A DNA stretch of 64,000 nucleotides from Escherichia coli. Lineage in GTDB: Bacteria; Pseudomonadota; Gammaproteobacteria; Enterobacterales; Enterobacteriaceae. Shown in pieces: positions 295 through 29,704 of this stretch (position 1 is the stretch's first letter; the number at the start of each line of letters is the position of its first letter). The notes under the pieces are model-generated. The model saw nothing but the letters and a program-made list of their open reading frames with translations, was not told the origin of the DNA and searched no databases. The position numbers and the translations under genes were made by a program. Location of the stretch: the NCBI RefSeq assembly GCF_011045215.1, contig NZ_CP049201.1; one strand, 5' to 3'.

Positions 295-912
295 TTAAAT
301 TAAAAACAGGCCGCACGGTTTGCCGATTTCCCAGACAACGTTACCGCCATCCTCTTTTTTCACCGTCAGGTTTCCGTCAACTGAAACCATCAGCAGCTTA
401 ATATCCACTTTCGGATTAGCGCCGGGTGATCCCGAATAAACATCAACCATGTTTTTCGTCAGATCCCACACAAAACCACTGGCAGCAACGGTGTTATTGC
501 CATCAGCCAGCGCAACAACTTCTGCACTGACAGGGAGAGGAATGCGGGCACCTGAGCCAACGCGGTAATAGTGAACAAAGCCACCCGCAAGATATAACGG
601 CACCGGATTATCCGGCGTGGTAATGCCATGAAATGCCTGATTAAAGACCGTAAAGGCGTTACATGCGTTTTGTGTAGCCTGCTTAATTACCGCGCCGTTA
701 ACGCTGTCTTTCGCGGGAGCAATGCACTCCATAATGCCAACGCCACCCCATACCGGTTCAGTGATTTTGCTGTCCAGTCGACCGGAGCAAAGTTGCAGAC
801 GAATTGCCGGATCATCCTGCGCATCCCCCTGCATCAGCCCACGGGATTCGACGTTAAAAAGGCCAACAAATGCTCCACGGTTTTTAAACGGATGAAAATT
901 AATATCAGCCAT
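295..912 (-). CDS. phage head protein (decoration- or capsid-associated), 205 aa
   Basis: ORF in head module between the scaffold/protease gene and the next structural gene; function assigned by position only. Confidence 0.4.
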   Translation of the reverse strand: MADINFHPFKNRGAFVGLFNVESRGLMQGDAQDDPAIRLQLCSGRLDSKITEPVWGGVGIMECIAPAKDSVNGAVIKQATQNACNAFTVFNQAFHGITTPDNPVPLYLAGGFVHYYRVGSGARIPLPVSAEVVALADGNNTVAASGFVWDLTKNMVDVYSGSPGANPKVDIKLLMVSVDGNLTVKKEDGGNVVWEIGKPCGLFLI

Positions 913-2227
913 TGTTCAGGCTCCCTTGAGTGTTAATTTTTGCCAGACGACGCCCCGGAATTTTGAAAGCACTCAGCCAGACGTTCGGATCGCCCTGATA
1001 TTCAGTAATGCGACGCCCGGCTTCATCGTTGCGGATACGTTTATGCAGTTGCCCCTGCCTACTCATCATTTCTTTTTCGATGGACTGACGGGCGGCACTG
1101 AAAATTGCGTCCTCAAGCACAGCCAGCGTTGCAGAATCCGCAATCGCGCGAATATTGACGTCCTTATGTGCCGGAGAGTGTTTCTGCATAGCGATTAGCG
1201 CACGCTTGCGGTAGTCCAGCGCATTTTCACCAGAAAACGGTGCTGGCGCGTTTTTACCGCAGGCACTGAATGCGGAGTCGGCTTTTGCCTGCGCTTCTGC
1301 CAGGGCAGAGTCATTGCGTTCTTTTTCTGCCTCCTCGTCAGCCTTACGCTGTTCTTCCGCTTCGGAATCAGCCTTTGCTTTCTCCTCAGCGTCTTTGGCT
1401 GCCGCCTCGTCAGCTTTGGCTTTTTCTTCCGCCTCCTTTGCCGCAGCTTCATCAGCTTTACGCTGTTCCTCTGCTGCTTCATCGGCTTTGGCCTTTTCTT
1501 CGGCCTCTTTTTTCGCCAGCTCTTCAGCATCCGCCCGCGCTTTGTCCCGCTGTTCCAGTGAGTCCATGCGCGTGACGACTCCATCGATTTTCTGATTAAT
1601 GCCGCTCAGGGCATCATTCACCACCCCCTGTAACAGGGCCTGGAGTTCTTCTTTTTCCATCTCAATTTCACCTGTATTTGTCACTTCAACCCCTGCGGGG
1701 ATCCGGTCTTTATCCCACACGCCCAACGAGCCGTGGTCTTTCGTCACCAGGGCGATGTGATCAACAAGGAAAGGAACGCCTTCGATTAAAAAATTGGTGT
1801 CACCTTCCTGTACTTCCACATTTCCTGATGTGCTGTTGAACACCACCGACGGGCTTGTCGAAACATCCCCCTCAGTGATTTCTTCAACAATGCTCTGGAG
1901 GTAAACGCGGCACACCGCCCATACCTCATCACCCCGGATATACGGCAGCATGACGCTACCAACGATCCGCGATTTAAAATCCTCCTCCGTCAGAACTGCG
2001 TCGTCAGGATGGTTTGCGATAACCGGAAGGCCATTGCATCGCCTTAAAAACTCCTCGTTCAGATAGAGCTTTGGATCACGCCAGACGTGCTCTTTCAGCC
2101 CGGCGCGATAGGCAAGCCCGGTTCCGGTTATGCGCAAATTCACCAGCCACATGTTGGAGAATTTCACCGGAGACGGTACGGTTCCGTCCCTGATGCGTTC
2201 TGCCACTTCAAGCTCGGTTAAACTCAC
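905..2227 (-). CDS. prohead protease / scaffold-like protein with internal Ala/Glu/Lys-rich coiled-coil repeats, 440 aa
   Basis: Position directly after portal and head-morphogenesis genes; central low-complexity region of EEKAKADEAA-type repeats typical of scaffold domains. Confidence 0.4.
   Translation of the reverse strand: MSLTELEVAERIRDGTVPSPVKFSNMWLVNLRITGTGLAYRAGLKEHVWRDPKLYLNEEFLRRCNGLPVIANHPDDAVLTEEDFKSRIVGSVMLPYIRGDEVWAVCRVYLQSIVEEITEGDVSTSPSVVFNSTSGNVEVQEGDTNFLIEGVPFLVDHIALVTKDHGSLGVWDKDRIPAGVEVTNTGEIEMEKEELQALLQGVVNDALSGINQKIDGVVTRMDSLEQRDKARADAEELAKKEAEEKAKADEAAEEQRKADEAAAKEAEEKAKADEAAAKDAEEKAKADSEAEEQRKADEEAEKERNDSALAEAQAKADSAFSACGKNAPAPFSGENALDYRKRALIAMQKHSPAHKDVNIRAIADSATLAVLEDAIFSAARQSIEKEMMSRQGQLHKRIRNDEAGRRITEYQGDPNVWLSAFKIPGRRLAKINTQGSLNNG
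1314..1560. repeat. in-frame tandem degenerate repeat (about 27-30 nt units) encoding (A/E/K)-rich heptad-like repeats
   Basis: Direct reading: repeated gctttggc/ttcttccgcctc motifs; translated as AEEKAKADEAA repeats inside the 905-2227 ORF. Confidence 0.7.
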
Positions 2228-3041
2228 GTTTGCCCTTCTCCGTTAAAAATTCGTCGGGTAGTTTCTGAGGGGCGTAGATCGGCAGTGCATCGCAACTGCA
2301 ATAAACCTCCTCCCCGGCAGCAGTGATTTCGTCATAAAAACCATATACGGGCTTAATCAGCCCCTGCTCCAGCGCCCACGAATCGCGGAGGAGATAAATT
2401 TTCTCGTCGCGCTCTTTGTGGTCCTGTCGGTATTTGTAGCCCGGACGCCGCCAATTCGAATGCCAGCGCAGAGCAATCGCTCCACTCTGAACAGCCAGCA
2501 GATACTTAACGTTGCTTGCCAGCTTATGCCCCTGGTCAATTGCCACCCGACGACTGATAAAATCCATATCCTTCACGGATTTCTGAAACCCGGCCTTCAC
2601 TTCCCGGCGATCAATTTCGCTCACCCCGTCAGGCGGAATGGACGTAACCCAACCCTGAAAACGCTGTATGGTTTTCTCGATGGCCTGTTCTCGGTTGAGT
2701 TTTATCAGGTTGGCACTGGCGAAAATTCGCCTGTCGAGTTCCTTGCGAAACTCAGGTTTCAGTTTTTCAACAGTGATTTTTTTAGGGCCGTCAGGAGGCT
2801 GATCCCGTAATGCCCCGCCGTCGATGACAAGACGGCTGTAGATAGCGGTGAGGTGTTTTCTGGCTACGGTATCATCAGGGGTTTCTCGCTGAGCGGCTAC
2901 ACGGAGTTTCCGGCACCATTCGAGCAATGATTTTTCGCTATCCCACCCGTGATTTACGTAGTAGTTAACGGCATCCGTCAGAACCTCATACAGCGTCCTG
3001 ATCCGTTTCTTCTTCCTCACCGCCCGGCTGGAAATTGCCAT
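2208..3041 (-). CDS. phage head morphogenesis protein (Mu F / SPP1 gp7-like minor head protein); start uncertain
   Basis: ORF immediately downstream of portal in late operon; track ORF (2208-3179) overlaps portal so an internal start is assumed. Confidence 0.35.
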   Translation of the reverse strand: MAISSRAVRKKKRIRTLYEVLTDAVNYYVNHGWDSEKSLLEWCRKLRVAAQRETPDDTVARKHLTAIYSRLVIDGGALRDQPPDGPKKITVEKLKPEFRKELDRRIFASANLIKLNREQAIEKTIQRFQGWVTSIPPDGVSEIDRREVKAGFQKSVKDMDFISRRVAIDQGHKLASNVKYLLAVQSGAIALRWHSNWRRPGYKYRQDHKERDEKIYLLRDSWALEQGLIKPVYGFYDEITAAGEEVYCSCDALPIYAPQKLPDEFLTEKGKREFNRA

Positions 3042-4425
3042 CAGGCGTCTCCTGCTTCGGTGGTTCATAATTCGCCAGCGCGTCCACATCAATGATGAGT
3101 GGAGCTTCGCCATAGGTTTGCGTGGCATTAACAAGGCTTGCCAGCCATTCAGTGACGGCGGCACGGTTTTCAGGATCAACCTGTGGCGACACGGCAGAGA
3201 AAAGTGCTATCGCCTGTTGAATCACTTTACTGTCGCTTTCCCGGCGTTTGTCCGGCGACTCCTCCACCAGCTCCTGCCATGTCGCGGTAAATTCACGTCG
3301 CCACTGGTAAAACGTGGTTTTATAGTCATCAGTTATGATGTCCGGGTAATCATTTTTCAGCGACTGATAAAATTCCTCGTTCCAGGCGATGTACTGCACC
3401 AGGCGTTCGAAATAATCCATCACGGGTTCAATCTGCTGGCGTACACCATCGATATACTGGCTGATGGCTTTCGAATCTTCGGTCCCCTCACCGAAACCAT
3501 TCGAAAAGGCTTCCTCTTTGATGAGGATCGCCGGAACGTCACTCCCTGACGCAATATCGGAAATAATATTGTCGCGTGCAGCGTTTAGCGCACCATCGAT
3601 GTTTTGTAGATTTAGCGAGGTAACGTCCTCATCCTTCCCGATACTAAGCACACCTTTATTTTTTGCCTCTTTGACGTTTTCCCTTTTTCGTCCCGTGGCG
3701 GCAGCCATGATCCCGTCAAGTTTCGAACCGTACTGCACAACTTTAGCTACCAGTACGCCCGCCTTCTGGCTGACGAGATCATTCGCCTCCATCGTGTTGA
3801 TATAGGATTTCAGGGAATAAAGAACGCGCTGAAACACACTTCGTCCGGTGAATCCGAACGATGAACTCTGAAACTCCAGATAAATCGGTGTGCCGTTGAA
3901 GATTTTCAGTGTGCGTGACGGATGCCAGTCTTTCCCACCAATCTTCAGTTTTTTATTGGCTTCCTGGAAAAACGGGCTGTTGGGGTTCTGGTCAGTCACC
4001 ATCGAACCGGAAGCGTTCAACGGGTCCCACGCGTTGATATACACGTCATCTTCTGTCAGTCCGAACGTCGGAAGCGGTTCACGACATGGAACGCTGTCGG
4101 TGCCCACGCCGATCGCTGCAGCACCGTAGCAACGAGACAGAAAAAACAGATTTTTAATCTTCTCGTTGACCTTCATGCGTTCCCATACCTCCTGAAAACG
4201 CCTCACAACCCTCTCGTCAGGGTCTGTCTCCACGTTATACTGGCGCGGCTTACACATCGCCATCAGTATGGGTTTTTCGACAAGTTTTCCGCCCAGAGGA
4301 TGGAATTGCCACAGCTGCTTACACAATTCATAGCCAATGTCGGTTCCCGGCTGAATTTCTTCAGCCTCAAGAATACGCATCAGTGCCGAACCGAGGCCGC
4401 CAGTAATCTCGATCTCTGCCATCAA
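2986..4425 (-). CDS. phage portal protein, 479 aa
   Basis: Large ORF directly downstream of terminase large subunit with acidic C-terminus; canonical position of portal. Confidence 0.55.
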   Translation of the reverse strand: MMAEIEITGGLGSALMRILEAEEIQPGTDIGYELCKQLWQFHPLGGKLVEKPILMAMCKPRQYNVETDPDERVVRRFQEVWERMKVNEKIKNLFFLSRCYGAAAIGVGTDSVPCREPLPTFGLTEDDVYINAWDPLNASGSMVTDQNPNSPFFQEANKKLKIGGKDWHPSRTLKIFNGTPIYLEFQSSSFGFTGRSVFQRVLYSLKSYINTMEANDLVSQKAGVLVAKVVQYGSKLDGIMAAATGRKRENVKEAKNKGVLSIGKDEDVTSLNLQNIDGALNAARDNIISDIASGSDVPAILIKEEAFSNGFGEGTEDSKAISQYIDGVRQQIEPVMDYFERLVQYIAWNEEFYQSLKNDYPDIITDDYKTTFYQWRREFTATWQELVEESPDKRRESDSKVIQQAIALFSAVSPQVDPENRAAVTEWLASLVNATQTYGEAPLIIDVDALANYEPPKQETPDGNFQPGGEEEETDQDAV

Positions 4426-4439
4426 AAATATCCTGATTT

Positions 4440-5768
4440 TTACAACTCCGCGTAATTACCGTGCGCGATGATCAATCCATAGGTGTAACAATCGAAAAGG
4501 TCATCAGCACGTTTATGCGCGTCTTTGTCTGCCAGGTGGAACCCGGCGATTTGTTTGATGAGGTGGTTTGCGGTTGTGCGCTTGAATGAAACGGTTTTGT
4601 CGTAAGCCTCGCGGGTAATTTTGCATTTACCCTGGTAATGGTGGCTGGAAGCCAGCACCGCGCGCTCGTCTTTCCCTTTGCTGGTTAACGCTGATTTAAT
4701 CGGCGTCATATCCCAGCCTTCGGTTTCCGCTTTCTGGTTGAGGATTGCGCCCATTGCGGCATCCTCCATGAATACCCCCTGACTCCCCAGGCGCGGGCGG
4801 CAGAGTTGCGCCAGCCGCTCGAGGTTGTCATAAACACCGGGGATATACTCAGGAAGCAGCGACGCTTTAATTTGCGTCACATCCCAGTCGATAACGGTCA
4901 GTTTCGGCTCATCGGAATACGTGGACTCATACGCGAAGTAAACCACGCCTGTCCCGTCGTTCTCCGTCCCGCCTTTCAGCGCCGTATCCATTACCGCAAA
5001 AATCATGTCGCAGTGTCGCGGCATCTCAACCGGCTGGCCATCCACCAGCAGCTTATCGACATCGAGTAACGCGTCTTTGGACCAGTCTACGAACTCTGCA
5101 AGATATTCCTGCTGCCAGACGCGCGGATCGGATTTCTTCTCCGTTTCCTCCAGTTCTTCTTTCGGAATATACGGATTCGATGAAGTTGGCGCATGGTGCA
5201 TAACAAATCCCAGGGATTCATCGTGGCATATCGCGTAGAAAAAATTGCTCTCGTCGATACCGTTTGGTGTGGAAAATACCCACGCACAGCCGCGGTAATC
5301 GACAAGCGTCGGGCGTATCGCTCGGGGCCAGATTTCCTCGAGCATTTCCGGCGATTTAGTGAATGCGGCCTCATCAATCAGCACAGCGTGATATTTACGC
5401 CCACGCCCGGCCAGTTTGTTATTGTCCGTTACCCAAAAGTCGATGCGCCCCCCATTACGGAGAATGATGCGCTTTTCATTTTTTGACTGACTGAGGATCA
5501 GCGGTTGCAGAACGGCGCTAATTTCATCCCAGATTTCCTGGTACTGGCGGTATTGCGCGGTAAAAATCCCCACCCTACCCGCGATAAGTTGCCCGGTGGT
5601 AGGAACGGCAAATTTCCGCGTAGCGAAACTGGTAGCGATGTTCACCAGCATCACCGTTTTACCCCAGCGACGACCACAGCATACCGCGTGGAAGCGTTCC
5701 TCTATTGCCGCCGTCCATGCAGCTATTTGCCCCTCATGAGGTTTTGGGAGGTAGATTTCAATCGACAT
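4440..5768 (-). CDS. terminase large subunit, 442 aa
   Basis: Walker A-like motif CGRRWGKT near N-terminus, acidic nuclease-like C-terminal half; follows the small-subunit gene with a 4-codon overlap. Confidence 0.75.
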   Translation of the reverse strand: MSIEIYLPKPHEGQIAAWTAAIEERFHAVCCGRRWGKTVMLVNIATSFATRKFAVPTTGQLIAGRVGIFTAQYRQYQEIWDEISAVLQPLILSQSKNEKRIILRNGGRIDFWVTDNNKLAGRGRKYHAVLIDEAAFTKSPEMLEEIWPRAIRPTLVDYRGCAWVFSTPNGIDESNFFYAICHDESLGFVMHHAPTSSNPYIPKEELEETEKKSDPRVWQQEYLAEFVDWSKDALLDVDKLLVDGQPVEMPRHCDMIFAVMDTALKGGTENDGTGVVYFAYESTYSDEPKLTVIDWDVTQIKASLLPEYIPGVYDNLERLAQLCRPRLGSQGVFMEDAAMGAILNQKAETEGWDMTPIKSALTSKGKDERAVLASSHHYQGKCKITREAYDKTVSFKRTTANHLIKQIAGFHLADKDAHKRADDLFDCYTYGLIIAHGNYAEL

Positions 5769-6849
5769 TATCCACTCCCGGCATCGGCAGAGAGTTGTGG
5801 ATAATTATTTCGTTATTCTCACCACCCACGCCTTTTTTGAGGTTTTCAATCTCAGTGCGCAGCTTTTCGTTGCGAAGCCTCAGTCCTTCAAGCTCCAGAT
5901 CATTGCGACTGTCAGTTGCACCACCAGCAGAACTTCCTTTCGTCGCCATTATCAGCTTGATAAGTTCGCGCCGGGCGGCAGCCTTATCCTCCAGCAGGAT
6001 CTCAACACCAAATTTCCCGAGCTTTGCCCCTGCATATAATTGTCGCGCATCCCCATCAAGCAGAGTGGTATCAGCCATATAAAGCTGTCCCGTTCCCTCA
6101 CCGCAGCACTTCGGACAATCCGGATTGGGTATGGCGTTATCAACAAAGCCGAGGCCTCCATATTCCGGCTCGGGTTTGCCATCTCTGGAGGCCTGTGCCG
6201 CTGCCTTATCGAATTCTGCAATATCACGCCACTGGTAGAGGTGATTCTCGCCCCAGCAATAACGGCAGTTAACACGGCGAAATTGTGCCAACTGATTGGG
6301 GTCGGCCTGGACAATGGCCATCAACTGACTCACCAGTAAATCCAGGTCTGCGGTATAGCGTTTCTGATACTGATTGCGGAAGTAGCTGATAGCACGATAA
6401 ACCCTGGCATTTCTAAGCATACGGCTGGCGTTGCTGTTAGCTGTCGCACCTTGCCCCTCATAACCAGCCAGTCGGTATGCCTCTGTCGGCTTTTTCCCCT
6501 GAGCAACAAGCATCGCAAACTTAGCCTGCTGGTCAGAAATGCCGAATTCATCGGGGCAGAACGAAAATTCCTCCGCGTCGCCCTCATTCAGGCACGCATC
6601 GGATACTGGCTTTTTTTTCTGAGATTTTCCGTTCCGCTTTTGCGCAGTCTGCGCAGATTTTTTCTGCGCACTTTGTTGCGCAGTTTTGCGCATTTCTGTC
6701 TGCGCATTTTTCGGAGGTTTTTTGATGTAACGACGGGCTGTTGCGTAATTCAGTCCCCTTGCCTCACACCATGCCACCGGGGATACACCGGAGCGGGTGT
6801 ATTCAGCAATATATTCCTGCTGCAACGCCCCCCAGTCCGGTCTGCTCAT
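5758..6849 (-). CDS. terminase small subunit-like protein, 363 aa
   Basis: N-terminal HTH-like region, basic Lys/Gln-rich linker, position immediately upstream of terminase large subunit. Confidence 0.5.
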   Translation of the reverse strand: MSRPDWGALQQEYIAEYTRSGVSPVAWCEARGLNYATARRYIKKPPKNAQTEMRKTAQQSAQKKSAQTAQKRNGKSQKKKPVSDACLNEGDAEEFSFCPDEFGISDQQAKFAMLVAQGKKPTEAYRLAGYEGQGATANSNASRMLRNARVYRAISYFRNQYQKRYTADLDLLVSQLMAIVQADPNQLAQFRRVNCRYCWGENHLYQWRDIAEFDKAAAQASRDGKPEPEYGGLGFVDNAIPNPDCPKCCGEGTGQLYMADTTLLDGDARQLYAGAKLGKFGVEILLEDKAAARRELIKLIMATKGSSAGGATDSRNDLELEGLRLRNEKLRTEIENLKKGVGGENNEIIIHNSLPMPGVDNVD

Positions 6850-6852
6850 TAG

Positions 6853-7062
6853 TTAGTCCTGATTTTTATCCACCCTGAGTAGTTCACGCAGGGCAAAGGC
6901 ATCCCCTTTTCTGGCAAGCTTAAACAATGCCGCCCGTAGTTCGGCTTCACCTTTCGCTCTGCCCTTACGGATGGATGCGTAAAAATCTGTCATTGCTTCC
7001 CGATTTTCTTTCAGTCGGTTCAGATCAACATCCAGAACGTCAGCGATTTGTTGTGCAGTCAT
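6853..7062 (-). CDS. small HTH-like phage protein (about 69 aa from internal Met)
   Basis: Short ORF between GT-A-like gene and terS; alpha-helical basic sequence; start chosen to avoid overlap with upstream gene. Confidence 0.3.
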   Translation of the reverse strand: MTAQQIADVLDVDLNRLKENREAMTDFYASIRKGRAKGEAELRAALFKLARKGDAFALRELLRVDKNQD

Positions 7063-7990
7063 CCGGCACGCTGCCAGAGACTCGACTTTCGAATACGGAA
7101 TCATTTGTCACCCCCATTGATATGCAGGGTGTCTTCTTCCTGTATTTTTCGTGAAGGATTTTTACTGCAGCGTTGTTCCAGGTGACCTGATGGTGAATGC
7201 GTTTATGGCTGGCCCCCATCAGTGAGATTTTTACGCACGAGGGCGCATACATGACGGAGTAAAAACTTTTAACGTAGGTTCCGGAATCCAGATACAGCTC
7301 GGTCATTCCGCCGCTGTTTTTCTGCGTCTGTTTCTGCCCTAACTGGACAGCACCGATCGTCATAAACAATTCACCACAGCGACCGAGATTCGTGTACGTA
7401 TTCACATCCTCGTTAATGCGCCCCATGAATGAGAACGGTCGATCAACCGAACAGATAAAGCTGTTCATTGCCTTGCGTTTCACCCACGAAGCATGGCCGC
7501 CATTGTCACCAAGAAAATCCCCGCCCTGCGACATAGCGATGGAAAGCGCAGGTATTGATTCGTAGTACGCCAGCATTTCAGAAAGGATCGCATCCAGTTT
7601 TCTTATCGGGAAATAGGCCTGGTCATAGTTGCGATCCACCCGAAACTGAAACTCGTGATAATCATCATCGAGCTGAATGAAGTATTTACACCCGACCAGT
7701 TTTGCCAGGTCGAAACAGGCATTACGGGCGTAAAAAATTGAGCGGCGATCACCGAAATTATCGGCTTCGTCAAAACGACTGGCTATATCGGCTTTGGAAA
7801 ACACCAGCACCTGTTCACCAAATTCAGCTATGTACTGATGCCGTGTCTTATCTTCATCATCAACAACGATAAAAATTTTCCCGGTATAGCCAGCACGACG
7901 CAACGTCCGGTAAGTCAGAACTTTGTCCGGTCGCCCGTGAGTCAGAATAAAGGCGCAAAAATCATCACGCATATTCCTCCTCCCCGCCAT
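7040..7990 (-). CDS. hypothetical protein with GT-A-like (nucleotide-diphospho-sugar transferase-like) motifs, about 310 aa
   Basis: N-terminal FILTHGRPD...IFIVVDDED and a later LDDDY (DXD-like) motif resemble GT2-type glycosyltransferases; translationally coupled to the upstream ParB-like gene. Confidence 0.35.
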   Translation of the reverse strand: MAGRRNMRDDFCAFILTHGRPDKVLTYRTLRRAGYTGKIFIVVDDEDKTRHQYIAEFGEQVLVFSKADIASRFDEADNFGDRRSIFYARNACFDLAKLVGCKYFIQLDDDYHEFQFRVDRNYDQAYFPIRKLDAILSEMLAYYESIPALSIAMSQGGDFLGDNGGHASWVKRKAMNSFICSVDRPFSFMGRINEDVNTYTNLGRCGELFMTIGAVQLGQKQTQKNSGGMTELYLDSGTYVKSFYSVMYAPSCVKISLMGASHKRIHHQVTWNNAAVKILHEKYRKKTPCISMGVTNDSVFESRVSGSVPDDCTTNR

Positions 7991-8753
7991 GCATGATCTC
8001 CACCATACGCTGCGTCATCCGGACAAAACCATTTTCGATGGCTTGCTGATAATCAATGATCACCAGTGCCGACTCCTCAAAAAGGCCCTGAATTTCAGCG
8101 GGGGCGTGAGCGTAATAGTCTGCAATTCTGCTGAAATTAAACACCGTGTGGCGTTCTGCCGCGCACAGGAGGAATTTTTCGATATCAGGCTCAAGGGACG
8201 CCGTACGTATCCGGCTGACCAGCTCCTGAGTTTTCGTATCGTCGTACAGTTCACTGATATCCGGTTCATCCCCTGACGGCTCATAAACAGGCGTATCAAT
8301 TTTCGTCGTGTACGGCTCATCCTCATTCGCTGTACCTGGCAAAACATCCGTTAATAGTTCGTCAATTTCTGTCGGGCAGAATCCTGTCAGGGAGATATCA
8401 AAATCAGCATTGATTAGGTCCGACAGCTCCATCCGTAACAGATCTTCATCCCAGCCAGCACTCATCGGCAGGCGATTATCAGCCAGGCGGTACGCCTTTT
8501 TCTGATCATCCGTCAGACCAGACAGAACAATGACCGGAACCGAATCCATTTTGAGCGCCTCAGCCGCCATAACACGCCCGTGCCCCGCAATAATTTCACC
8601 CTTTTCATCAATCAGCACCGGATTTGTCCAGCCGAATTGCTTAATGCTTTCAACCAGCTGTGTCACCTGTTCAGGAGAGTGTGTCCTTGCATTGTGCACA
8701 TACGGAGACAACTCTTGTAACAGTCGATAGACAATATTCAATTTTTCGCTCAT
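7965..8753 (-). CDS. ParB-like nuclease domain protein, 262 aa
   Basis: ParB/Srx-type N-terminal domain (…VHNARTHS…IIAGHGR motif); start at the ATG preceded by a GAGG Shine-Dalgarno. Confidence 0.6.
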   Translation of the reverse strand: MSEKLNIVYRLLQELSPYVHNARTHSPEQVTQLVESIKQFGWTNPVLIDEKGEIIAGHGRVMAAEALKMDSVPVIVLSGLTDDQKKAYRLADNRLPMSAGWDEDLLRMELSDLINADFDISLTGFCPTEIDELLTDVLPGTANEDEPYTTKIDTPVYEPSGDEPDISELYDDTKTQELVSRIRTASLEPDIEKFLLCAAERHTVFNFSRIADYYAHAPAEIQGLFEESALVIIDYQQAIENGFVRMTQRMVEIMHGGEEEYA

Positions 8754-9226
8754 ACAACCTCGCTTTATGAATAAAAAACTAACAGCAGCCAGTGGAGAGC
8801 ATTTATCATTAACATTTACAGATAAGATGACGTACATCATTGAAACGCCATTAAGCTATATACCTGCAGCATTTGTAGTTGCACTCCGCAACTCTGCGAC
8901 TACGGTTATAAAAGCATTGGCAACTTTTGCCACCGGCAAATCTTCCATGGATTTCCTCTGCCGGTTTTTTATTTTCGTCGATGCATAACATTGCATTTAC
9001 ATCAATACCGTCTATTGTCATAAGTATGTTGTACCGATGCTCGGGTGATATTGGCGGTCTTCGCCAGCCGGTTCTGTGTAGTTGCTCCCTGTGACCGGTT
9101 TTTTATTTCTCACATTACAGCAGCCCCTCACCAAAGGGCTGCTGTAATGCCTGCTGTTACTCACAAATCAGACCATCATGATCACCGCTCATCCCTGGAC
9201 TGTTCCCGCAGTCGGAGTTTTGTTTT

Positions 9227-12144: not shown

Positions 12145-12687
12145 TCAAGCCATTTTTTGAGCAAATGATTCTCGCATGGGAATGTATAGCGCATACTCAG
12201 CAACAGCCAACCAATTAGCAATTCGCTTTTCGCATGTGCTAAAACACCACTCTGGGTGTGCATCATTTAGCAATTCAGCCATTTTTCGCTTAGTCATCCC
12301 CCGCCCCTCATAGCGTTGCCGGAGAATACAAATCAATCCCGGATGATCCGCCATAACTTCGCCAATAACTCTGTCGATTATTAATGCCTCTGAATCGGCA
12401 CAATGTGCCAGCCAGCTCTTTTGCTTGCCGTTAATCATATCCCGCAAAAAAGCCTCAAGTTCAGGCTTGTCCAGACCTGCTTTTTTCATCCTCCGGAGCG
12501 CCTCGTTAATTGCCGTTTTTGTCAGCTTTTTAGAGGTCAACATCTGGTTAAACATATTCCCTGTCTTACCGCCACCAATATACGACCAGCGCCCCCACAT
12601 ACGCAGTTTTCCCTGAATCCAGACACTTTCCAGCGTAGTGAGACGAAGGTGTTCTCCGCTTTTTCCTGTATTCGTTGGGTAAATCAC
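12145..12687 (-). CDS. putative late-gene antiterminator (Q-like), about 180 aa, GTG start
   Basis: Last gene before a promoter-terminator region, the tRNAs and the lysis cassette; GTG start with AAGGAGG Shine-Dalgarno 7 nt upstream; assignment is positional. Confidence 0.4.
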   Translation of the reverse strand: MIYPTNTGKSGEHLRLTTLESVWIQGKLRMWGRWSYIGGGKTGNMFNQMLTSKKLTKTAINEALRRMKKAGLDKPELEAFLRDMINGKQKSWLAHCADSEALIIDRVIGEVMADHPGLICILRQRYEGRGMTKRKMAELLNDAHPEWCFSTCEKRIANWLAVAEYALYIPMRESFAQKMA

Positions 12688-12974
12688 AAATATCCCTCCT
12701 TTCTCCAGATTTCTTGTGTGCGAAAAACACCTTCTGCATGCATCAGGCGCAATTCTTCTTTGGTGTAATCGATGGTTTTTACTCTCCCGTCGATTAAATC
12801 GTGGCACGAGCTACAGGCAATCGCCGCCTGCATATCGTGTGGTTTTGTCGCTGTTCCACACGTCCCCGCCAGCCTGTAATGTGCCAGCACAGACGTTCCG
12901 GGATTGTGATTGCAGTAGCCAGGAATTCTGACCTGGCACATCTGGCCCCGCGCCGCTTTACGCAAATTCACCAT
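12684..12974 (-). CDS. DUF1364-family protein (YbcO-like putative nuclease), 96 aa
   Basis: Cys-rich motifs CQVRIPGYCN...HYRLAGTCGT...IACSSCHD as in lambdoid YbcO/NinG-region proteins. Confidence 0.55.
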   Translation of the reverse strand: MVNLRKAARGQMCQVRIPGYCNHNPGTSVLAHYRLAGTCGTATKPHDMQAAIACSSCHDLIDGRVKTIDYTKEELRLMHAEGVFRTQEIWRKEGYL

Positions 12975-21585: not shown

Positions 21586-22195
21586 TAATTGATATGCGGG
21601 AATTTCTATTCCTGAGAGATGCATTTTTCACGCCCGGACAACGCCCGGCAATTGCCAGATTCAGTTTTTCACGCTGCTCTGGCGTAAGAAGTTTAACAAG
21701 TTCTTCAAGAACAAGCGCGGTAGCCTCTAATCTGGCGGAAAGATAATCAATATTTTTGTGTTGAGATTGAATAGGCATAAGCAATTCCTTACTGGTTGTG
21801 TGAGAGCGCCAGTATACCACCGAGCCTGAAGTGGTAAAAAAAGACAAGCACACAACACGAAAGCGTACGGAGGAGGTGTTTTTCCCTTAGAAGGCTTGTC
21901 GTTAAATTTCTTCGACCGTGCGCTTCCGGTTGTGAATAACAACATTGCTGTGTGTAGTCTTGGCGGCATCAGTTTTTTCTTGAAGTTCGGCTGATGTCCG
22001 CCCTTTTTAAAGTGAATTTTGTGATGCGGTGAATGCGGCTCAGCGCACGCGGAACAGTTAAAAGGCCAGTTGACCTCCGTATTGGTTCTTATGGGTGGGT
22101 TCTCTGTATCCGGCGTTAATTGTTAACTGGTTAACGTCACCTGGAGGCACCAGGCACCGCATCGACAAAATTCATTTGTGAAAATGGAGATAATT

Positions 22196-22417
22196 ATGAT
22201 TGCTCATCACTTCGGAACTGATGAAATACCACGTCAGTGTGTGACTCCTGGCGATTATGTTCTTCATGAAGGTCGGACATATATCGCCTCAGCAAACAAT
22301 ATTAAAAAGCGAAAACTTTATATTCGTAGCCTGACTACAAAAACATGCATTTCTGACTGCATGATTAAAGTCTTCCTCGGTCGTGATGGTTTACCTGTAA
22401 AGGCGGAGTCATGGTGA
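22196..22417 (+). CDS. kilR: KilR-like cell-division inhibitor, 73 aa
   Basis: [35 protein letters not shown]...; length and position match Rac KilR. Confidence 0.7.
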
Positions 22418-22587
22418 TGACTAAGAAAATAAAATGTGCTTACCACCTTTGCAATAAAGGAATTGAAGAAAGCAAAAGCATTAAAAGACCACTTCATTTC
22501 ATGCGTGGAGTTATCCCAACGACGGAAATGAAAAAATATTGTAGTGAAAATTGTGCCGAAAAAGACCAGATGGCACACGAACTCTAA
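22417..22587 (+). CDS. ydaE: YdaE-like small Cys-rich protein, 56 aa; not in the ORF track
   Basis: ATG overlaps the kilR stop (TGATG); translation [56 protein letters not shown]. Confidence 0.7.
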   Translation: MTKKIKCAYHLCNKGIEESKSIKRPLHFMRGVIPTTEMKKYCSENCAEKDQMAHEL

Positions 22588-22661
22588 TTAACTGACTATT
22601 CGAAACTGAATTTATGCCAGCAATGGCAGGGATTCTTTCAACCTTAAAAAAGGAAACAGCA

Positions 22662-22961
22662 ATGCACAAGCATATTAAATGTGAAATTGAACTTGATGTT
22701 ATTAACGATTCTCTCGCCGAATTTAAATGCGGGAATACATTACATGGTTTTATTCAGATTTCCCAAAAAGAAAACATTACGGTAATTATTGATGGTGGTT
22801 ACGTTCTGGGAACATTTGATTGTGATGCATGTGCCCTTAAAGAAGTCGCATTACTCGCAGCTCGTATTGAAGAGGCTGACAAGAAATACGGTATCAGTTA
22901 TCAACGACTGAAAGAACTCTCTTATATCGCATCATCAGTTCATTTCTTTTATGCAATCTGA
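22662..22961 (+). CDS. racC: RacC-like protein, about 99 aa
   Basis: Position between ydaE and the recE-like gene as in Rac; start taken at MHKHIKCEIE. Confidence 0.5.
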   Translation: MHKHIKCEIELDVINDSLAEFKCGNTLHGFIQISQKENITVIIDGGYVLGTFDCDACALKEVALLAARIEEADKKYGISYQRLKELSYIASSVHFFYAI

Positions 22962-22985
22962 ATCTGAGTTGAGGTTAAAAAAATA

Positions 22986-24887
22986 ATGAGCATAAAACAA
23001 CACTTCCTGTTACGGAAAGCGAAAAAATCATCCGGTGAACCTGACGCAGTTCTGTGGGCAAGCGACGATCTCGAATCGACCAGTGCCACTCTGGACTACC
23101 TGATTGTTAAGTCAGGTAAAAAACTGAGCAACTATTTTAAAGCTGTTGCTACGAATTTTCCTGTCGTTAACGACCTGCCCCCAGAAGGGGAGATCGATTT
23201 TACGTGGTGTGAACGCTATCAACTCGGCAAGGACTCCATCACCTGGGAACTAAAACCAGGTGCAGCACCAGACGACGTTCACCATCAGGAGAATATCCCG
23301 GAAACTGAAGAACTGGCTGGAGACCAGGAAGAAAACGCGCAGGCGGACGCTCACGGGGATTGCCAGGATTGCGAAGTTCCTGTAGCCACACTCAGTCTTA
23401 CTCATCGTTTCCTTCATCTCTTCTTTTTCGGTCAGATGGAAGGTGGAAAATACAGTAGTCACGCCACGCCGGAACAGCGCAATACCGTCATCCGGATGGA
23501 GCTGGATACGGAGGACAGCTACCTCCAGAGTCTGCTTACAGCAGTACGCTCTCATCCTGAACTGGATAAGCTGACAAACCACCATCTTGGCAGACTGGCG
23601 GAGTCTGTATCCAGAGTGTTTACCCACACAGAAACCCGTTGCATCAGCCCCGCTGAATTCGACAAATTCATTTCCACCTGGATGAAAACTGATTATCTGG
23701 ATCAGGGATTACTGACAAAAGAATGGGCGAAGGGAAACTGCGTATCTGAAATCAATCGCACCCCGTCGGGCGCTAATGCCGGTGGCGGTATCCTTACCGA
23801 CCGTGGAGAAGGTTTTGTCCATGATGATGCATCAGTAGCGCGTGACGTAGCCGCTGGCGTACTGGCACGTTCAATGGATATCGATATTTACAATCCACAT
23901 CCAGCACACGCTAAACGTATTGGGGAAATTGTCGCTGAAAATAAACCGCCATTTTCTGTTTTTTTCAGCAAATTCATCACCATGCCTGGCCACAAGGATT
24001 TCTCCCGCGCCATCGTGGTTGCGTCCGTGAAAGAAGCGCCAGTCGGTATAGAGGCTACCCCACACCATGTCACTGAATATCTGAACAGGGTGCTGACTGA
24101 AACCGATCATGCCAACCCTGATCCGGAAATCGTGGATATTGCCTGCGGTCGCTCCTCTGCCCCGATGCCACAGCGTGTAACAGAAGAAGAAAAACCGCAA
24201 CCATCTTGCGCAATGGCAGATGAACAGGCAACGGCTGAAACAGTGGAACCGGATACAAGTGAACATCATCAGGACACGCAGCCGCTGGATGCCAAGTCAC
24301 AGGCCGATGCGAAATATCAGAAACTGCGGGAAGAACTCCATGAAGCCCGGAAAAACATTCCGCCCAAAAATCCTGTCGATACAGACAAAATGCTGGCAGT
24401 CCATCGCGGTGAGTTCGTTGAAGGAATTAGCGACCCGAATGATCCGAAATGGGTGAAGGGAATTGAAACCCGCGATTCTGTGAACCAGAACCTGCCAGAA
24501 ACGGAAAAAACCAGTCAGGATGTGAAACAACCTGAGCCAGTAGTGCAACGGGAACCGGAAATAGTCTGCACCGCCTGCGGTCAGAGCGGTGGCGGCAACT
24601 GCCCTGATTGTGGCGCGGTGATGGGCGACGCAACATATCAGGAAACATTCGATGAAGAGAATCAGGCTGAAACTCAGGAAAATGATCCGGAGGAAATGGA
24701 AGGCACTGAACCATCATTAGAAAAACTCGACTGGAAAAGACAAGTGGTGATTGCGGCTGTTTATGGTTTGTGTGCGAATCCTGCAGGTATAGCCTCAGCG
24801 CCATTAATTCCGGGTATTGCAATGATGATTGCCAACAAGCTTGAAAATTTTGGGGTGACGGATGATGAGCACATACCCGATTTTTGA
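22986..24887 (+). CDS. recE: RecE N-terminal region homolog lacking the C-terminal exonuclease domain, 633 aa
   Basis: N-terminus [26 protein letters not shown] and internal blocks ([50 protein letters not shown]) match my recollection of Rac RecE residues 1 to about 600; ORF ends where the gam-like gene begins. Confidence 0.55.
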
Positions 24888-25161
24888 TCGCATTGAAGAG
24901 CTGGCATGGTCACGCCACTACCAGCAGATCGTTCGCGAAGAAAAAGAAACGGAGCTGGCAGACGACCTGGAAAAAGGTCTACCCCAGCACCTGTTTGAAT
25001 CGCTCTGCATCGACCATTTGCAACGCCACGGTGCCAGCAAACAGGCAATCAGTCGCGCATTTGATGACGATGTTGAATTTCAGGAACGCGTGGCGGAACA
25101 CATCCGGTACATGGTTGAAACCATTGCTCGTCACCAGGTTGATATTGATTTGAAGGTATAA
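24862..25161 (+). CDS. gam: Gam-like RecBCD inhibitor (short form), 99 aa
   Basis: [45 protein letters not shown]...HQVDID closely matches lambda Gam. Confidence 0.8.
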
Positions 25162-25166
25162 AACAA

Positions 25167-25952
25167 ATGAGTACAGCACTTGCAACACTGGCCGGGAAGC
25201 TGGCTGAACGTGTCGGCATGGATTCTGTCGACCCACAGGAACTGATCACCACTCTTCGCCAGACAGCATTTAAAGGCGATGCCAGCGATGCGCAGTTCAT
25301 CGCATTGCTGATCGTCGCCAACCAATACGGCCTTAATCCGTGGACGAAAGAAATTTACGCCTTCCCTGATAAGCAGAACGGCATCGTTCCGGTGGTGGGC
25401 GTTGATGGCTGGTCCCGCATCATCAATGAAAACCAGCAGTTTGATGGCATGGACTTTGAGCAGGACAATGAATCCTGTACATGCCGGATTTACCGCAAGG
25501 ACCGTAATCATCCGATCTGCGTTACCGAATGGATGGATGAATGCCGCCGCGAACCATTCAAAACCCGCGAAGGCAGAGAAATCACCGGACCGTGGCAGTC
25601 GCATCCCAAACGAATGTTGCGGCATAAAGCCATGATTCAGTGTGCCCGTCTGGCCTTCGGATTTGCTGGTATCTATGACAAGGATGAAGCCGAGCGCATT
25701 GTCGAAAATACCGCATACACTGCAGAACGTCAGCCAGAACGCGACATCACTCCGGTTAACGATGAAACCATGCAGGAGATTAACACTCTGCTGATCGCCC
25801 TGGATAAAACATGGGATGACGACTTATTGCCGCTCTGTTCCCAGATATTTCGCCGCGACATTCGCGCATCGTCAGAACTGACACAGGCCGAAGCAGTGAA
25901 AGCTCTTGGATTCCTGAAACAGAAAGCCACTGAGCAGAAGGTGGCAGCATGA
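25167..25952 (+). CDS. bet: Bet (Red-beta) single-strand annealing protein, 261 aa
   Basis: Near-identical to lambda Bet over its length ([37 protein letters not shown]...). Confidence 0.9.
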
Positions 25953-26629
25953 CACCGGACATTATCCTGCAGCGTACAGGGATCGACGTGAGAGCTGTCG
26001 AACAGGGGGATGATGCATGGCACAAATTACGGCTCGGCGTCATCACCGCTTCAGAAGTTCACAACGTGATAGCAAAGCCCCGCTCAGGAAAGAAGTGGCC
26101 TGACATGAAAATGTCCTACTTCCACACCCTGCTGGCTGAGGTTTGCACCGGTGTGGCTCCGGAAGTTAATGCTAAGGCGCTGGCCTGGGGAAAACAGTAC
26201 GAGAACGACGCCAGAACCCTGTTTGAATTCACTTCCGGCGTGAATGTTACTGAATCCCCGATCATCTATCGCGACGAAAGTATGCGCACCGCCTGCTCTC
26301 CCGATGGTTTATGCAGTGACGGCAACGGCCTTGAACTGAAATGCCCGTTTACCTCCCGGGATTTCATGAAATTCCGGCTCGGTGGTTTCGAGGCAATAAA
26401 ATCGGCTTACATGGCCCAGGTGCAGTACAGCATGTGGGTGACGCGAAAAGATGCCTGGTACTTTGCCAACTATGACCCGCGTATGAAGCGTGAAGGCCTG
26501 CATTATGTCGTGGTTGAGCGGGATGAAAAGTACATGGCGAGTTTTGACGAGATGGTGCCGGAGTTCATCGAAAAAATGGACGAGGCACTGGCTGAAATTG
26601 GTTTTGTATTTGGGGAGCAATGGAAATGA
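25949..26629 (+). CDS. exo: lambda-type Exo (Red-alpha) 5'-3' exonuclease, 226 aa
   Basis: Near-identical to lambda Exo ([40 protein letters not shown]...). Confidence 0.9.
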
Positions 26630-26856
26630 GCGCAGCCACAAAGCTCACAGGAGAAAAACCAGTGCGATACACAAAAATTAAACCATGTCCATTTTGTGGT
26701 TGTCCATCAGTAACGGTGAAAGCCATTTCAGGATATTACCGAGCGAAGTGTAACGGATGCGAATCCCGAACCGGTTATGGTGGAAGTGAAAAGGAAGCAC
26801 TCGAAAGATGGAATAAACGAACCACTGGAAATAATAATGGAGGTGTTCATGTATAA
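26620..26856 (+). CDS. ralR: RalR-like restriction-alleviation protein / type I toxin
   Basis: [48 protein letters not shown] matches Rac RalR. Confidence 0.7.
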
Positions 26857-27037
26857 AATTACCGCCACTATTGAAAAGGAAGGTGGCACTCCTACTAACT
26901 GGACAAGATATTCAAAATCTAAACTAACGAAATCAGAATGCGAAAAAATGCTCTCAGGTAAAAAAGAAGCGGGCGTTTCCAGAGAGCAGAAAGTAAAACT
27001 GATAAATTTTAATTGCGAGAAACTTCAGTCCTGGTGA
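26837..27037 (+). CDS. ydaC: YdaC-like small protein; start uncertain
   Basis: [23 protein letters not shown]...; position between ralR and xis as in Rac. Confidence 0.5.
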   Translation: MEVFMYKITATIEKEGGTPTNWTRYSKSKLTKSECEKMLSGKKEAGVSREQKVKLINFNCEKLQSW

Positions 27038-27136
27038 ATTGCATTGTATTCAAATTAAAACTTCATAGCTGATTATTAATAATCAACATCGGGCGTCAAT
27101 TTCAGTCTAACATTGGCGCCTGCCAGAGGTGATGCG

Positions 27137-27352
27137 ATGGCACAAGTAATCTTTAATGAAGAGTGGATGGTTGAATACGGCCTGATGCTTCGCACTGGTC
27201 TGGGGGCCAGACAAATTGAAGCATACCGCCAGAACTGTTGGGTGGAAGGCTTCCACTTCAAACGAGTATCTCCTTTAGGGAAGCCAGACAGTAAGCGAGG
27301 GATTATCTGGTACAACTATCCAAAGATAAATCAGTTTATCAAAGACTCATGA
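27137..27352 (+). CDS. ydaQ: excisionase-like protein (YdaQ/XisR-like), 71 aa
   Basis: [32 protein letters not shown]...; immediately upstream of integrase. Confidence 0.65.
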
Positions 27353-27353
27353 T

Positions 27354-28589
27354 ATGTCTAAATTACCAACAGGTGTCGAGATTCGAGGTAAATACATTCG
27401 CATCTGGTTCATGTTTCGAGGAAAACGATGCCGGGAAACATTGAAAGGCTGGGAGGTTACTAACAGTAACATTAAAAAAGCCGGGAATTTAAGAGCGTTG
27501 ATAGTTCATGAAATCAATTCCGGTGAATTTGAGTATTTAAGACGTTTCCCCCAGTCCGGCACTGGGGCAAAAATGGTGACAACTAGGGTCATAAAAACGT
27601 TCGGGGAGCTTTGTGATATCTGGACAAAAATTAAAGAGACAGAGTTAACAACAAACACAATGAAGAAAACGAAATCACAATTAAAAACACTCAAGATAAT
27701 AATTTGTGAGAGTACCCCGATATCGCATATTCGTTATAGCGATATCTTAAACTACCGGAATGAACTGCTGCATGGAGAAACGCTTTACCTGGATAATCCA
27801 AGATCCAACAAAAAAGGAAGAACCGTGCGCACAGTTGATAACTATATCGCCCTACTCTGTTCGCTGTTACGTTTTGCGTATCAGTCGGGATTTATATCAA
27901 CCAAACCATTTGAAGGAGTAAAAAAATTACAGCGAAACAGAATAAAGCCTGACCCGTTATCTAAAACAGAATTCAATGCATTAATGGAAAGTGAAAAAGG
28001 ACAGAGCCAGAACTTATGGAAATTTGCCGTTTACTCAGGACTTCGTCACGGGGAACTGGCAGCTCTGGCGTGGGAGGATGTGGATCTCGAGAAGGGAATT
28101 GTGAATGTCAGAAGAAACCTGACGATACTTGATATGTTCGGTCCCCCAAAAACAAATGCCGGGATCCGGACAGTAACACTACTGCAGCCTGCTCTTGAAG
28201 CACTGAAGGAGCAATACAAACTGACCGGACATCATCGCAAAAGCGAAATCACCTTTTATCATAGGGAGTACGGCAGAACCGAAAAGCAAAAACTGCATTT
28301 TGTTTTCATGCCCAGGATGTGTAACGGAAAACAGAAACCTTATTACTCGGTAAGCAGTTTGGGTGCGAGATGGAATGCAGCAGTAAAACGTGCTGGTATT
28401 CGCCGCCGTAATCCGTACCATACGCGGCATACTTTTGCCTGCTGGCTGTTGACGGCAGGAGCGAACCCGGCGTTTATAGCCAGCCAGATGGGGCATGAAA
28501 CTGCGCAGATGGTGTATGAAATTTACGGTATGTGGATTGATGACATGAACGACGAACAGGTAGCCATGTTGAATGCGCGGTTATCGTAA
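27354..28589 (+). CDS. intR: tyrosine-type site-specific integrase (IntR-like), 411 aa
   Basis: C-terminal catalytic region with R...HTRHT...Y residues; last phage gene before ttcA. Confidence 0.85.
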   Translation: MSKLPTGVEIRGKYIRIWFMFRGKRCRETLKGWEVTNSNIKKAGNLRALIVHEINSGEFEYLRRFPQSGTGAKMVTTRVIKTFGELCDIWTKIKETELTTNTMKKTKSQLKTLKIIICESTPISHIRYSDILNYRNELLHGETLYLDNPRSNKKGRTVRTVDNYIALLCSLLRFAYQSGFISTKPFEGVKKLQRNRIKPDPLSKTEFNALMESEKGQSQNLWKFAVYSGLRHGELAALAWEDVDLEKGIVNVRRNLTILDMFGPPKTNAGIRTVTLLQPALEALKEQYKLTGHHRKSEITFYHREYGRTEKQKLHFVFMPRMCNGKQKPYYSVSSLGARWNAAVKRAGIRRRNPYHTRHTFACWLLTAGANPAFIASQMGHETAQMVYEIYGMWIDDMNDEQVAMLNARLS

Positions 28590-28640
28590 TTGCAAAGTTT
28601 GCCCCCAATTTGCCCCATTTAGTACCAGAGAACTGAAATA

Positions 28641-29576
28641 ATGCAAGAAAATCAAAAGAATACGAAGAAAGAGATATACAATCTGAACAAATTACAAAAA
28701 CGCCTGCGTCGTAACGTGGGCGAAGCCATTGCTGACTTCAATATGATTGAAGAAGGCGATCGCATCATGGTTTGCCTCTCCGGGGGTAAAGACAGCTATA
28801 CCATGCTGGAGATTCTGCGCAATTTGCAGCAAAGCGCGCCAATCAATTTTTCGCTGGTGGCTGTTAACCTCGATCAAAAGCAACCGGGCTTCCCGGAACA
28901 CGTTCTGCCCGAGTATCTTGAAAAGCTGGGCGTTGAGTACAAGATTGTTGAAGAGAACACTTACGGTATCGTGAAAGAGAAGATTCCAGAGGGCAAAACC
29001 ACTTGCTCACTGTGTTCTCGGCTACGTCGCGGTATCCTTTATCGCACCGCAACGGAACTGGGGGCGACGAAGATCGCGTTGGGCCACCATCGTGACGATA
29101 TCCTGCAAACGTTGTTCTTAAATATGTTCTACGGCGGTAAGATGAAAGGTATGCCTCCGAAACTGATGAGCGATGATGGCAAACATATCGTTATTCGTCC
29201 GCTGGCCTACTGCCGCGAGAAAGATATTCAGCGATTTGCCGATGCAAAAGCGTTCCCGATTATTCCGTGCAACCTGTGCGGTTCACAGCCTAACCTGCAA
29301 CGTCAGGTGATTGCTGACATGTTGCGTGACTGGGATAAACGTTATCCAGGGCGTATCGAGACGATGTTCAGCGCGATGCAGAATGTGGTGCCGTCGCATC
29401 TGTGCGATACCAACCTGTTCGATTTCAAAGGCATCACCCACGGTTCTGAAGTGGTTAACGGGGGTGATCTTGCGTTTGATCGCGAAGAGATCCCACTACA
29501 ACCGGCGGGCTGGCAGCCAGAAGAAGATGAAAATCAGTTGGATGAGTTACGGCTGAATGTGGTTGAAGTGAAATAA
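28641..29576 (+). CDS. ttcA: tRNA 2-thiocytidine(32) synthetase TtcA
   Basis: PP-loop SGGKDS and CxxC motifs; 311 aa. Confidence 0.9.
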
Positions 29577-29584
29577 CCCGGATA

Positions 29585-29695
29585 GCGCCCGATGCGCAAG
29601 CGTATCGGGCTACTCTAATGGAGGCCGGATAAGACGCGGCCAGCGTCGCATCCGGCAATCCCGAATAAGATGTTTACTCTTGCACCCGGCAATTC
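29585..29695. repeat. REP-like palindromic units in the ttcA-dbpA intergenic
   Basis: gccggataagacgcg...cgcatccggc imperfect palindromes. Confidence 0.5.
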
Positions 29696-29704
29696 AACAT
29701 TTCA

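Follow-up and report, generated by a model that had tools for sequence, protein, structure and literature searches.

A stretch of 64,000 nt from Escherichia coli contig NZ_CP049201.1 (assembly GCF_011045215.1), hereafter the window, to whose numbering all coordinates refer unless another locus is named, carries in the left arm of a Rac-type prophage an open reading frame (ORF) of 633 aa that resembles the N-terminal part of RecE and runs directly into lambda-type gam, bet and exo genes. The initial annotation of this DNA held that the recombinase cassette had been swapped within this very prophage and that a truncated RecE had been left behind; our comparisons show instead that the ORF is intact, is maintained by selection and belongs to a conserved nuclease-less RecE-N/YdfE-like subfamily, and that its junction with gam-bet-exo was not created here, the Red mosaic being a circulating module. 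A better description of the event is that related early-left operons have exchanged alternative C-terminal/downstream modules with one another. Our explanation as a whole, in which an intact subfamily member, acquired with its block by exchange, would serve as an adaptor in DNA-end processing, is in our judgment an even call. The four genes, taken from the ORF list of the window and its translations, lie where the initial annotation had placed them:

22986..24887, plus strand: RecE-N-like nuclease-less ORF of the tail type, 633 aa, protein P0001 (ORF list, RecE comparison)
24862..25161, plus strand: gam, short form, 99 aa from 24862 or 98 aa from 24865, the gene callers' start (PHROG 259 at 4e-53; PF06064)
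25167..25952, plus strand: bet, 261 aa (TIGR01913, 169.5 against a cut-off of 76.95; lambda comparison)
25949..26629, plus strand: exo, 226 aa (PF09588 YqaJ; lambda comparison)

The nuclease-less protein and its conserved tail

Over RecE residues 1 to ~565 the 633-aa protein is 63% identical to its K-12 counterpart (BLASTP, E=0), and BLASTP matched no part of the RecE PD-(D/E)XK nuclease domain (RecE 564-866) in it. The NCBIfam equivalog for exodeoxyribonuclease VIII (NF007259) aligns over profile positions 1-578 of 877 with a score of 806.8, which falls short of the 1269 cut-off, while the precomputed Pfam assignment is PF06630 only, full-length homologues having PF12684 as well. RecE alignment, Pfam and NCBIfam thus agree with the initial annotation that the protein is RecE-related and lacks the nuclease; its further claim that the ORF matches RecE from residue 1 to about 600 stands for the N-terminal homology and fails at the far end, where the match stops at ~565 and the last ~58 residues, foreign to RecE, match neither K-12 Rac nor lambda. 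For the first 575 residues the nearest sequences are genuine full-length RecE alleles; taken segment by segment, the protein is closest, after protein P0002, to nuclease-bearing RecE proteins of either type, with which it shares 87-95% identity. Four parts of the protein are referred to below:

22995..23534, plus strand: PF06630 Exonuc_VIII match, residues 4-183 (Pfam, E 9e-60)
23757..24158, plus strand: most conserved core of the family, residues 258-391, including TDRGEGF and PG..DYSRAI (family alignment)
24567..24614, plus strand: CxxC-x8-CxxC motif, residues 528-543 (read from the sequence; common to K-12 RecE)
24732..24848, plus strand: conserved C-terminal motif, residues 583-621, with three short predicted helices (tail alignment, AlphaFold2)

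The core follows the consensus RTxSG...TDR...PGxLDYSRA...ETDH of an 88-sequence alignment (A1) and is still 44% identical over 134 aa to that of the distant homologue P0208. An AlphaFold2 model built from the same number of aligned sequences, with a mean predicted local distance difference test score (pLDDT) of 78.9, is very confident for residues 1-100, a predicted alpha/beta domain (pLDDT above 94), and for residues 130-400 (above 92), the conserved core itself lying above 93; a structural search of the Protein Data Bank with this core found no relative. The linkers are modelled as disordered and are acidic, and the three short helices of the tail, at residues 583-621, reach a pLDDT of 64-77. 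The CxxC-x8-CxxC motif is possibly a zinc ribbon, the matches to zinc-ribbon Pfam families being weak (E 0.5) and the pLDDT there low. The protein as a whole is acidic, with an isoelectric point (pI) of 4.75, and has no basic domain, as is also true of its distant relatives (family pI 4.6-4.8); this composition makes it less likely that the folded part binds DNA directly.

The end of the protein is a conserved tail and not the stump that the initial annotation supposed. An exhaustive search of 1.84 billion cluster representatives matched 242 clusters, and C-terminal classes were assigned to the 83 representatives at 50% identity that were at least 450 aa long and among the best 150 hits; the motif QQLTIAALQGLCANPA...DDLPxMAxxLA, lying within the last ~50 residues, ends 21 of these 83 long family members. 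From those 21 tails, borne by proteins only 25-45% identical overall, we derived the consensus LTYxQQLTIAALQGLCANPAxxxxxDDLPxMAxxLA with invariant A, A, G, N and P, and the window tail keeps all five invariant positions (phmmer found the tail in 24 representatives). The 682-aa ORF of phage 75/02 Stx ends with the same motif, which runs DWKRQ(V/L)V(I/L)...IAN(K/R)LENFG. A search of a set of 5.8 billion proteins with a profile of the tail alone yielded only short pieces of proteins from this family and revealed no further architecture.

Substitution patterns indicate that the whole gene, tail included, is being maintained. By the Nei-Gojobori method the ratio of nonsynonymous to synonymous rates (dN/dS) is 0.23 for the gene against 75/02 Stx (dS 1.1) and 0.28 against the prophage of E. 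coli F2_407, 0.23 and 0.06 in the same two comparisons for the tail alone (tail dS 0.24-0.93), and 0.11-0.18 for residues 236-400. At least 20 E. coli contigs encode the exact window protein within this same gene context, and intact nuclease-less relatives of 624-683 aa and 69-88% identity all carry the tail at their end. Because of this purifying selection and wide conservation, the suggestion already made in the initial annotation that the nuclease-less protein may have a function of its own gains in weight.

A decaying pseudogene, whose ORF would be a non-functional remnant, might still be argued from the call that the Prokaryotic Genome Annotation Pipeline (PGAP) makes on the F2_407 homologue ('incomplete; missing C-terminus'), from a score under the equivalog cut-off and from a 72-nt in-frame deletion relative to its relatives; we consider it highly improbable in view of intact ORFs of 624-683 aa across lineages separated by dS of up to 1.1 with dN/dS of 0.23-0.28, of purifying selection acting on the tail, of the carriage of the gene by isolated and sequenced phages, and of the confidently predicted folded domains. 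The F2_407 copy that PGAP flags as a pseudogene is itself an intact ORF of 671 aa (L003 6001-7830, NZ_CP074756.1). Annotation of intact nuclease-less tail-type genes is inconsistent (F2_407; NC_029120.1, NC_025434.1), the labels given being pseudogene 'RecE family exodeoxyribonuclease, missing C-terminus', 'exodeoxyribonuclease VIII' and 'exonuclease VII'; for such genes the label 'exodeoxyribonuclease VIII' and the pseudogene call are both misleading.

Breakpoints of the mosaic and its surroundings

Breakpoints were mapped by BLASTN of the window against K-12 Rac, lambda, phage 75/02 Stx and E. coli F2_407. On the left, K-12 Rac DNA is matched at 21918-22654 (kilR and ydaE, 88%), 22955-23295 and 23700-24711; lambda DNA is matched at 24907-26640 with 95.3% identity; and the Rac match resumes at 26678-29700 with 97.9% identity, covering ralR, ydaC, xis, int and ttcA. 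The comparison with K-12 RecE and lambda that the initial annotation had proposed as a check thus puts the breakpoints at 24711/24712, 24907, 26640 and 26678, and its view that Rac-type flanks here enclose a lambda-type Red cassette, making the left arm a mosaic, is supported. Three intervals fall between these matches:

23296..23699, plus strand: internal variable segment, ~residues 104-238, without DNA match to K-12 recE (BLASTN gap against Rac)
24712..24906, plus strand: junction block of 195 bases matching neither K-12 Rac nor lambda (BLASTN)
26641..26677, plus strand: right-hand junction, from the end of lambda homology at 26640 to the return of Rac homology at 26678, just inside ralR (BLASTN)

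Phage 75/02 Stx and certain full-length RecE proteins have the same allele of the variable segment. The junction block encodes both the last ~58 aa of the 633-aa protein (24712-24887) and the first ~15 codons of gam, and it matches 75/02 Stx at 90%, in a match running on through gam-bet-exo, and the F2_407 prophage at 95%, in one running on through ralR and ydaC to 27086. Given that F2_407-type homology extends so far, the right crossover could lie anywhere in 26678-27086. The abrupt change of identity at 24711/24712 coincides with the 72-nt in-frame deletion just mentioned, which is seen against P0002 and F2_407 (24 aa, one flanking 'TE' copy counted) and whose position is precisely that of the linker to which either nuclease domains or the tail are attached; the lost stretch being flanked by '...GTE' and '...VTE', the deletion may have arisen by slippage between short repeats.

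The tail-gam junction was found in 27 of 5,426 complete E. coli genomes and in four phages among 50,697 phage records (PhiR5_2, phiSTEC1589-Stx1c, 75/02 Stx and POCJ13), tblastn of those records with the window tail and the consensus tail yielding no phage beyond these four. The tail-gam-bet-exo block, with or without ralR-ydaC, is moreover found with other integrases and at other attachment sites, such as the yebY site in two of the loci compared (L003, L014). Because the same junction occurs in sequenced phages and in 27 genomes, it was not made in this prophage. A one-off cassette swap, in which gam-bet-exo replaced the RecE nuclease and recT here and a truncated RecE fragment was left open by chance, has on its side the Rac-type flanks, the lambda-type cassette and an N-terminal part of 575 residues that is nearest to full-length RecE alleles at 87-95% identity. 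We nevertheless give it little credence: the last 58 aa and the gam start form a conserved block that other prophages and sequenced phages also have, distant members of the family end in the same tail motif, P0002 and the F2_407 gene show a junction older than the 72-nt deletion of this prophage, and the identical junction in phages with other integrases contradicts it. Nor does truncation accord with distant subfamily members that stand alone without Red or RecET. We rather envisage that this Rac-type prophage acquired the composite block by homologous exchange, for which the shared recE-N region would have served on the left and ralR-ydaC on the right.

Within the block the 633-aa ORF and gam overlap by 23-26 nt, stop and start overlapping, and the ORF hence does not end exactly where gam begins, as had been stated. 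The three products match PHROGs 259, 252 and 149, and the description of the cassette as near-lambda is apt for Bet (99.6% aa identity) and Exo (98.2%); it is less so for Gam, which in its short form is 79.6% identical to lambda Gam residues 41-138. The first ~15 gam codons (24862-24906) lie outside the lambda-homologous DNA and are common to the 75/02 Stx-type module, and the 98-aa short form has no counterpart to the 40-residue N-terminal extension of lambda Gam. No strong terminator-like site was found on the coding strand between 22650 and 27400. Protein and DNA comparison with K-12 Rac showed that recT and the nuclease part of recE are absent from the locus. Downstream of exo the following features were placed:

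26662..26856, plus strand: ralR, Lar-like restriction alleviation/toxin gene of Rac type (PF14354; 97.9% DNA identity to K-12 Rac)
26855..27033, minus strand: RalA antitoxin small RNA (Rfam RF02694, 217.5 bits against a gathering score of 170)
26849..27037, plus strand: ydaC/rcbA, DUF1187 (PF06688; 100% identity over 61 aa to K-12 RcbA)
27137-27352, plus strand: Rac-type xis (ORF list, K-12 Rac DNA match)
27354-28589, plus strand: Rac-type int, adjoining ttcA (ORF list, K-12 Rac DNA match)
28641-29576: ttcA, the attachment site, next to int

The hallmarks of a Rac-type prophage are accordingly present, namely integration adjoining ttcA, Rac int and xis, ralR/RalA, ydaC, kilR and ydaE. RalA is full-length, runs antisense to ydaC/rcbA and lies directly against the ralR 3' end, so that the Rac-type RalR/RalA toxin-antitoxin pair is intact directly downstream of a lambda-type exo. 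The flanks are of Rac type as the initial annotation stated for kilR, ydaE, ralR, ydaC, xis and int, with racC as the exception: the ORF in its position between ydaE and the RecE-N-like gene (22614-22961, plus strand; 115 aa, or 99-112 aa by gene callers) shows no resemblance to K-12 RacC, matches no Pfam family and is an unrelated gene. Compared with K-12 Rac, the prophage seems to be much more complete, and it continues beyond the left edge of the window; the small and the large terminase subunit, a portal, a head morphogenesis protein and a Q-like antiterminator are present (295-8840 and 12145-12807, both on the minus strand), as are a ParB-like nuclease/methyltransferase-like gene (7965-8840, minus strand) and a glucosyltransferase-like gene (7040-7990, minus strand).

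A family with interchangeable C-termini

The wider family, as our comparisons show, consists of a folded acidic N-terminal part of ~400 residues joined to an interchangeable C-terminus, and is found in the early-left operons of lambdoid phages of the Enterobacterales. The 83 classified representatives fall into the following types:

Tail motif: 21 of 83
PD-(D/E)XK domain of the ~1040-aa RecE type: 17 of 83
DEDDh 3'-5' exonuclease: 12 of 83
'...GRLRRL...' type: 7 of 83
Partial or other, including a few carriers of the K-12-type nuclease (P0150, P0155): 26 of 83

N-terminal alleles that are nearly identical occur with either PD-(D/E)XK type, with the DEDDh exonuclease or with the tail, three C-terminal types being represented among alleles of 87-95% identity; such combinations imply that exchange at the linker has been both recent and repeated. 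The DEDDh class was confirmed as PF16473 (Rv2179c-like) in P0122, whose gene (L019 4001-6418), like those of 11 other representatives, joins the RecE-N-like part to a DEDDh domain in place of the 5'-3' PD-(D/E)XK nuclease; the gene in L019 stands alone, with xis and int directly after it and no annealase. A protein of 775 aa with a '...YLGGRLRRL...' end (P0126, L020 149-3260) has gam immediately upstream and a gene of the Sipho_Gp157 family downstream.

Tail-type proteins remote from that of the window keep its position and dispense with its neighbours. In all seven distant representatives with enough flanking DNA (L009, L011, L012, L013, L016, L017 and L018) the gene follows kil-like genes and lies just before xis/int in a Rac-like prophage, and gam, bet, exo and recT were found in none of the seven. 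Six of these proteins contain the Pfam families YdfE_N and/or YdfE_C, and P0162 has PF06630 instead; PHROG 26058 ('unknown function') is matched by P0208 and P0195, each with both YdfE families, along their whole length, and by P0162 in its C-terminal part. The stand-alone homologues have no conserved partner gene downstream, the small ORFs there not being homologous to one another. The ydfE gene of the K-12 Qin prophage (L015 10079-10999) is a pseudogene cut by IS2 that represents the truncated N-terminal part of a YdfE-like/tail-type protein and, like the window gene, occupies the pre-integrase position; K-12 therefore has remnants of two members of the family, recE in Rac and ydfE in Qin. 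Direct BLASTP of K-12 Qin YdfE against the window protein detects no similarity, and the two are linked only via intermediates such as P0208.

A possible adaptor role and known systems

As to function, our best guess, and one that we hold only moderately likely, is that the 633-aa protein acts in DNA-end processing as an acidic adaptor without catalytic activity. What its acidic folded part binds would be a protein, of host or phage, rather than DNA, and the C-terminal position would supply either a nuclease in cis, as in the RecE type, or a docking tail engaging a partner in trans, as in the tail type; this partner could be lambda Exo/Bet at the present locus and a host factor in the stand-alone relatives. 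Full-length RecE, unlike its nuclease domain alone, supports efficient linear-linear recombination, a property used for direct cloning. It is this reported effect, together with the repeated fusion of the family to three exonuclease classes, its position in Rec modules and its adjacency to gam in two arrangements, that leads us to the adaptor proposal. The locus would then amount to full-length RecE in split form together with Red, and might boost linear-linear recombination by Red.

The main rival is a host-directed function outside recombination, whereby the acidic protein would bind and inhibit or hijack a host protein (a nuclease, a defence system or a replication factor) and both the nuclease fusions and the Red neighbours would be incidental to operon mosaicism. 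A family-wide pI of 4.6-4.8 without any basic domain, the lack of a recombinase beside all seven distant loci, and the wealth of host-takeover genes (kil, gam, ral) in early-left operons are what one would expect of such a protein. That the family has been fused repeatedly and independently to three different exonuclease classes, and lies beside gam in two distinct arrangements, points rather to DNA-end metabolism, and no match was obtained with PADLOC, a library of host defence proteins and not of phage counter-defence; we therefore place this rival somewhat on the unlikely side. An anti-RecBCD role for the RecE N-terminal region, an idea suggested by RecET-type modules without gam, was not adopted, as the locus has its own gam; a published survey, in which phages without an anti-RecBCD gene tend to have many Chi sites instead, also speaks against it.

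A bolder extension of the adaptor proposal is that K-12 RecE is itself a fusion, in which the N-terminal ~575 residues would be an autonomous phage protein with its own target, the C-terminus a socket for interchangeable effectors, and the CANPA tail a docking element recruiting a nuclease or annealase in trans. We think this extension quite unlikely; if it were true, the locus would represent a 'split RecE' of natural origin, from which Red could gain efficient linear-linear recombination. The role of the large N-terminal part of RecE has been a standing question since the 1980s and carries practical weight through linear-linear recombination. That nature keeps this part as a separate, selected gene, sometimes beside lambda Red and sometimes without a recombinase, makes its role directly testable.

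A nuclease-less phage family, that of PHROGs 607 and 26058, has already been noted in the literature, and the window gene is a further member of it. Nuclease-less 'RecE-2' proteins of lambdoid Rec modules, which probably include the window type, are mentioned in a 2025 paper (PMC12315714); neither that paper nor PMC11611040 gives a function for the nuclease-less type, and no functional study of YdfE was found in the literature.

Set beside named systems, the window gene resembles K-12 Rac RecE (866 aa) in that its residues 1-575 are homologous to RecE 1-~565, including PF06630, the core and CxxC...CxxC, and in that it occupies the same place after kilR-ydaE in a Rac-type prophage at ttcA; it differs in having no nuclease, a conserved tail of 40 aa in its stead, and gam-bet-exo rather than recT downstream. 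AXI88_gp06 of phage 75/02 Stx (682 aa) is likewise RecE-N-like, without a nuclease and with a CANPA tail, in the order orf-gam-bet-exo; it is 59% identical to the window protein, with tail-gam-bet-exo DNA 90% identical, yet it has a different N-terminal stretch of ~50 residues and a longer acidic linker, and its phage has a different integrase and attachment site. The YdfE-like proteins (PF27430/PF27432, PHROG 26058) share the core (44% over 134 aa), the tail motif (43%) and a position just upstream of xis/int in Rac-like prophages, but have an N-terminal YdfE_N instead of PF06630, an extra helical domain before the tail, no CxxC motif and no adjoining gam, bet or exo. Lambda Red, finally, is matched in the gene order gam-bet-exo with its overlaps and in near-identical Bet and Exo, whereas the Gam of the window is clearly less lambda-like than these two, the upstream neighbour is a RecE-N-like gene where lambda has kil/cIII, and the downstream neighbour is ralR where lambda has orf60a.

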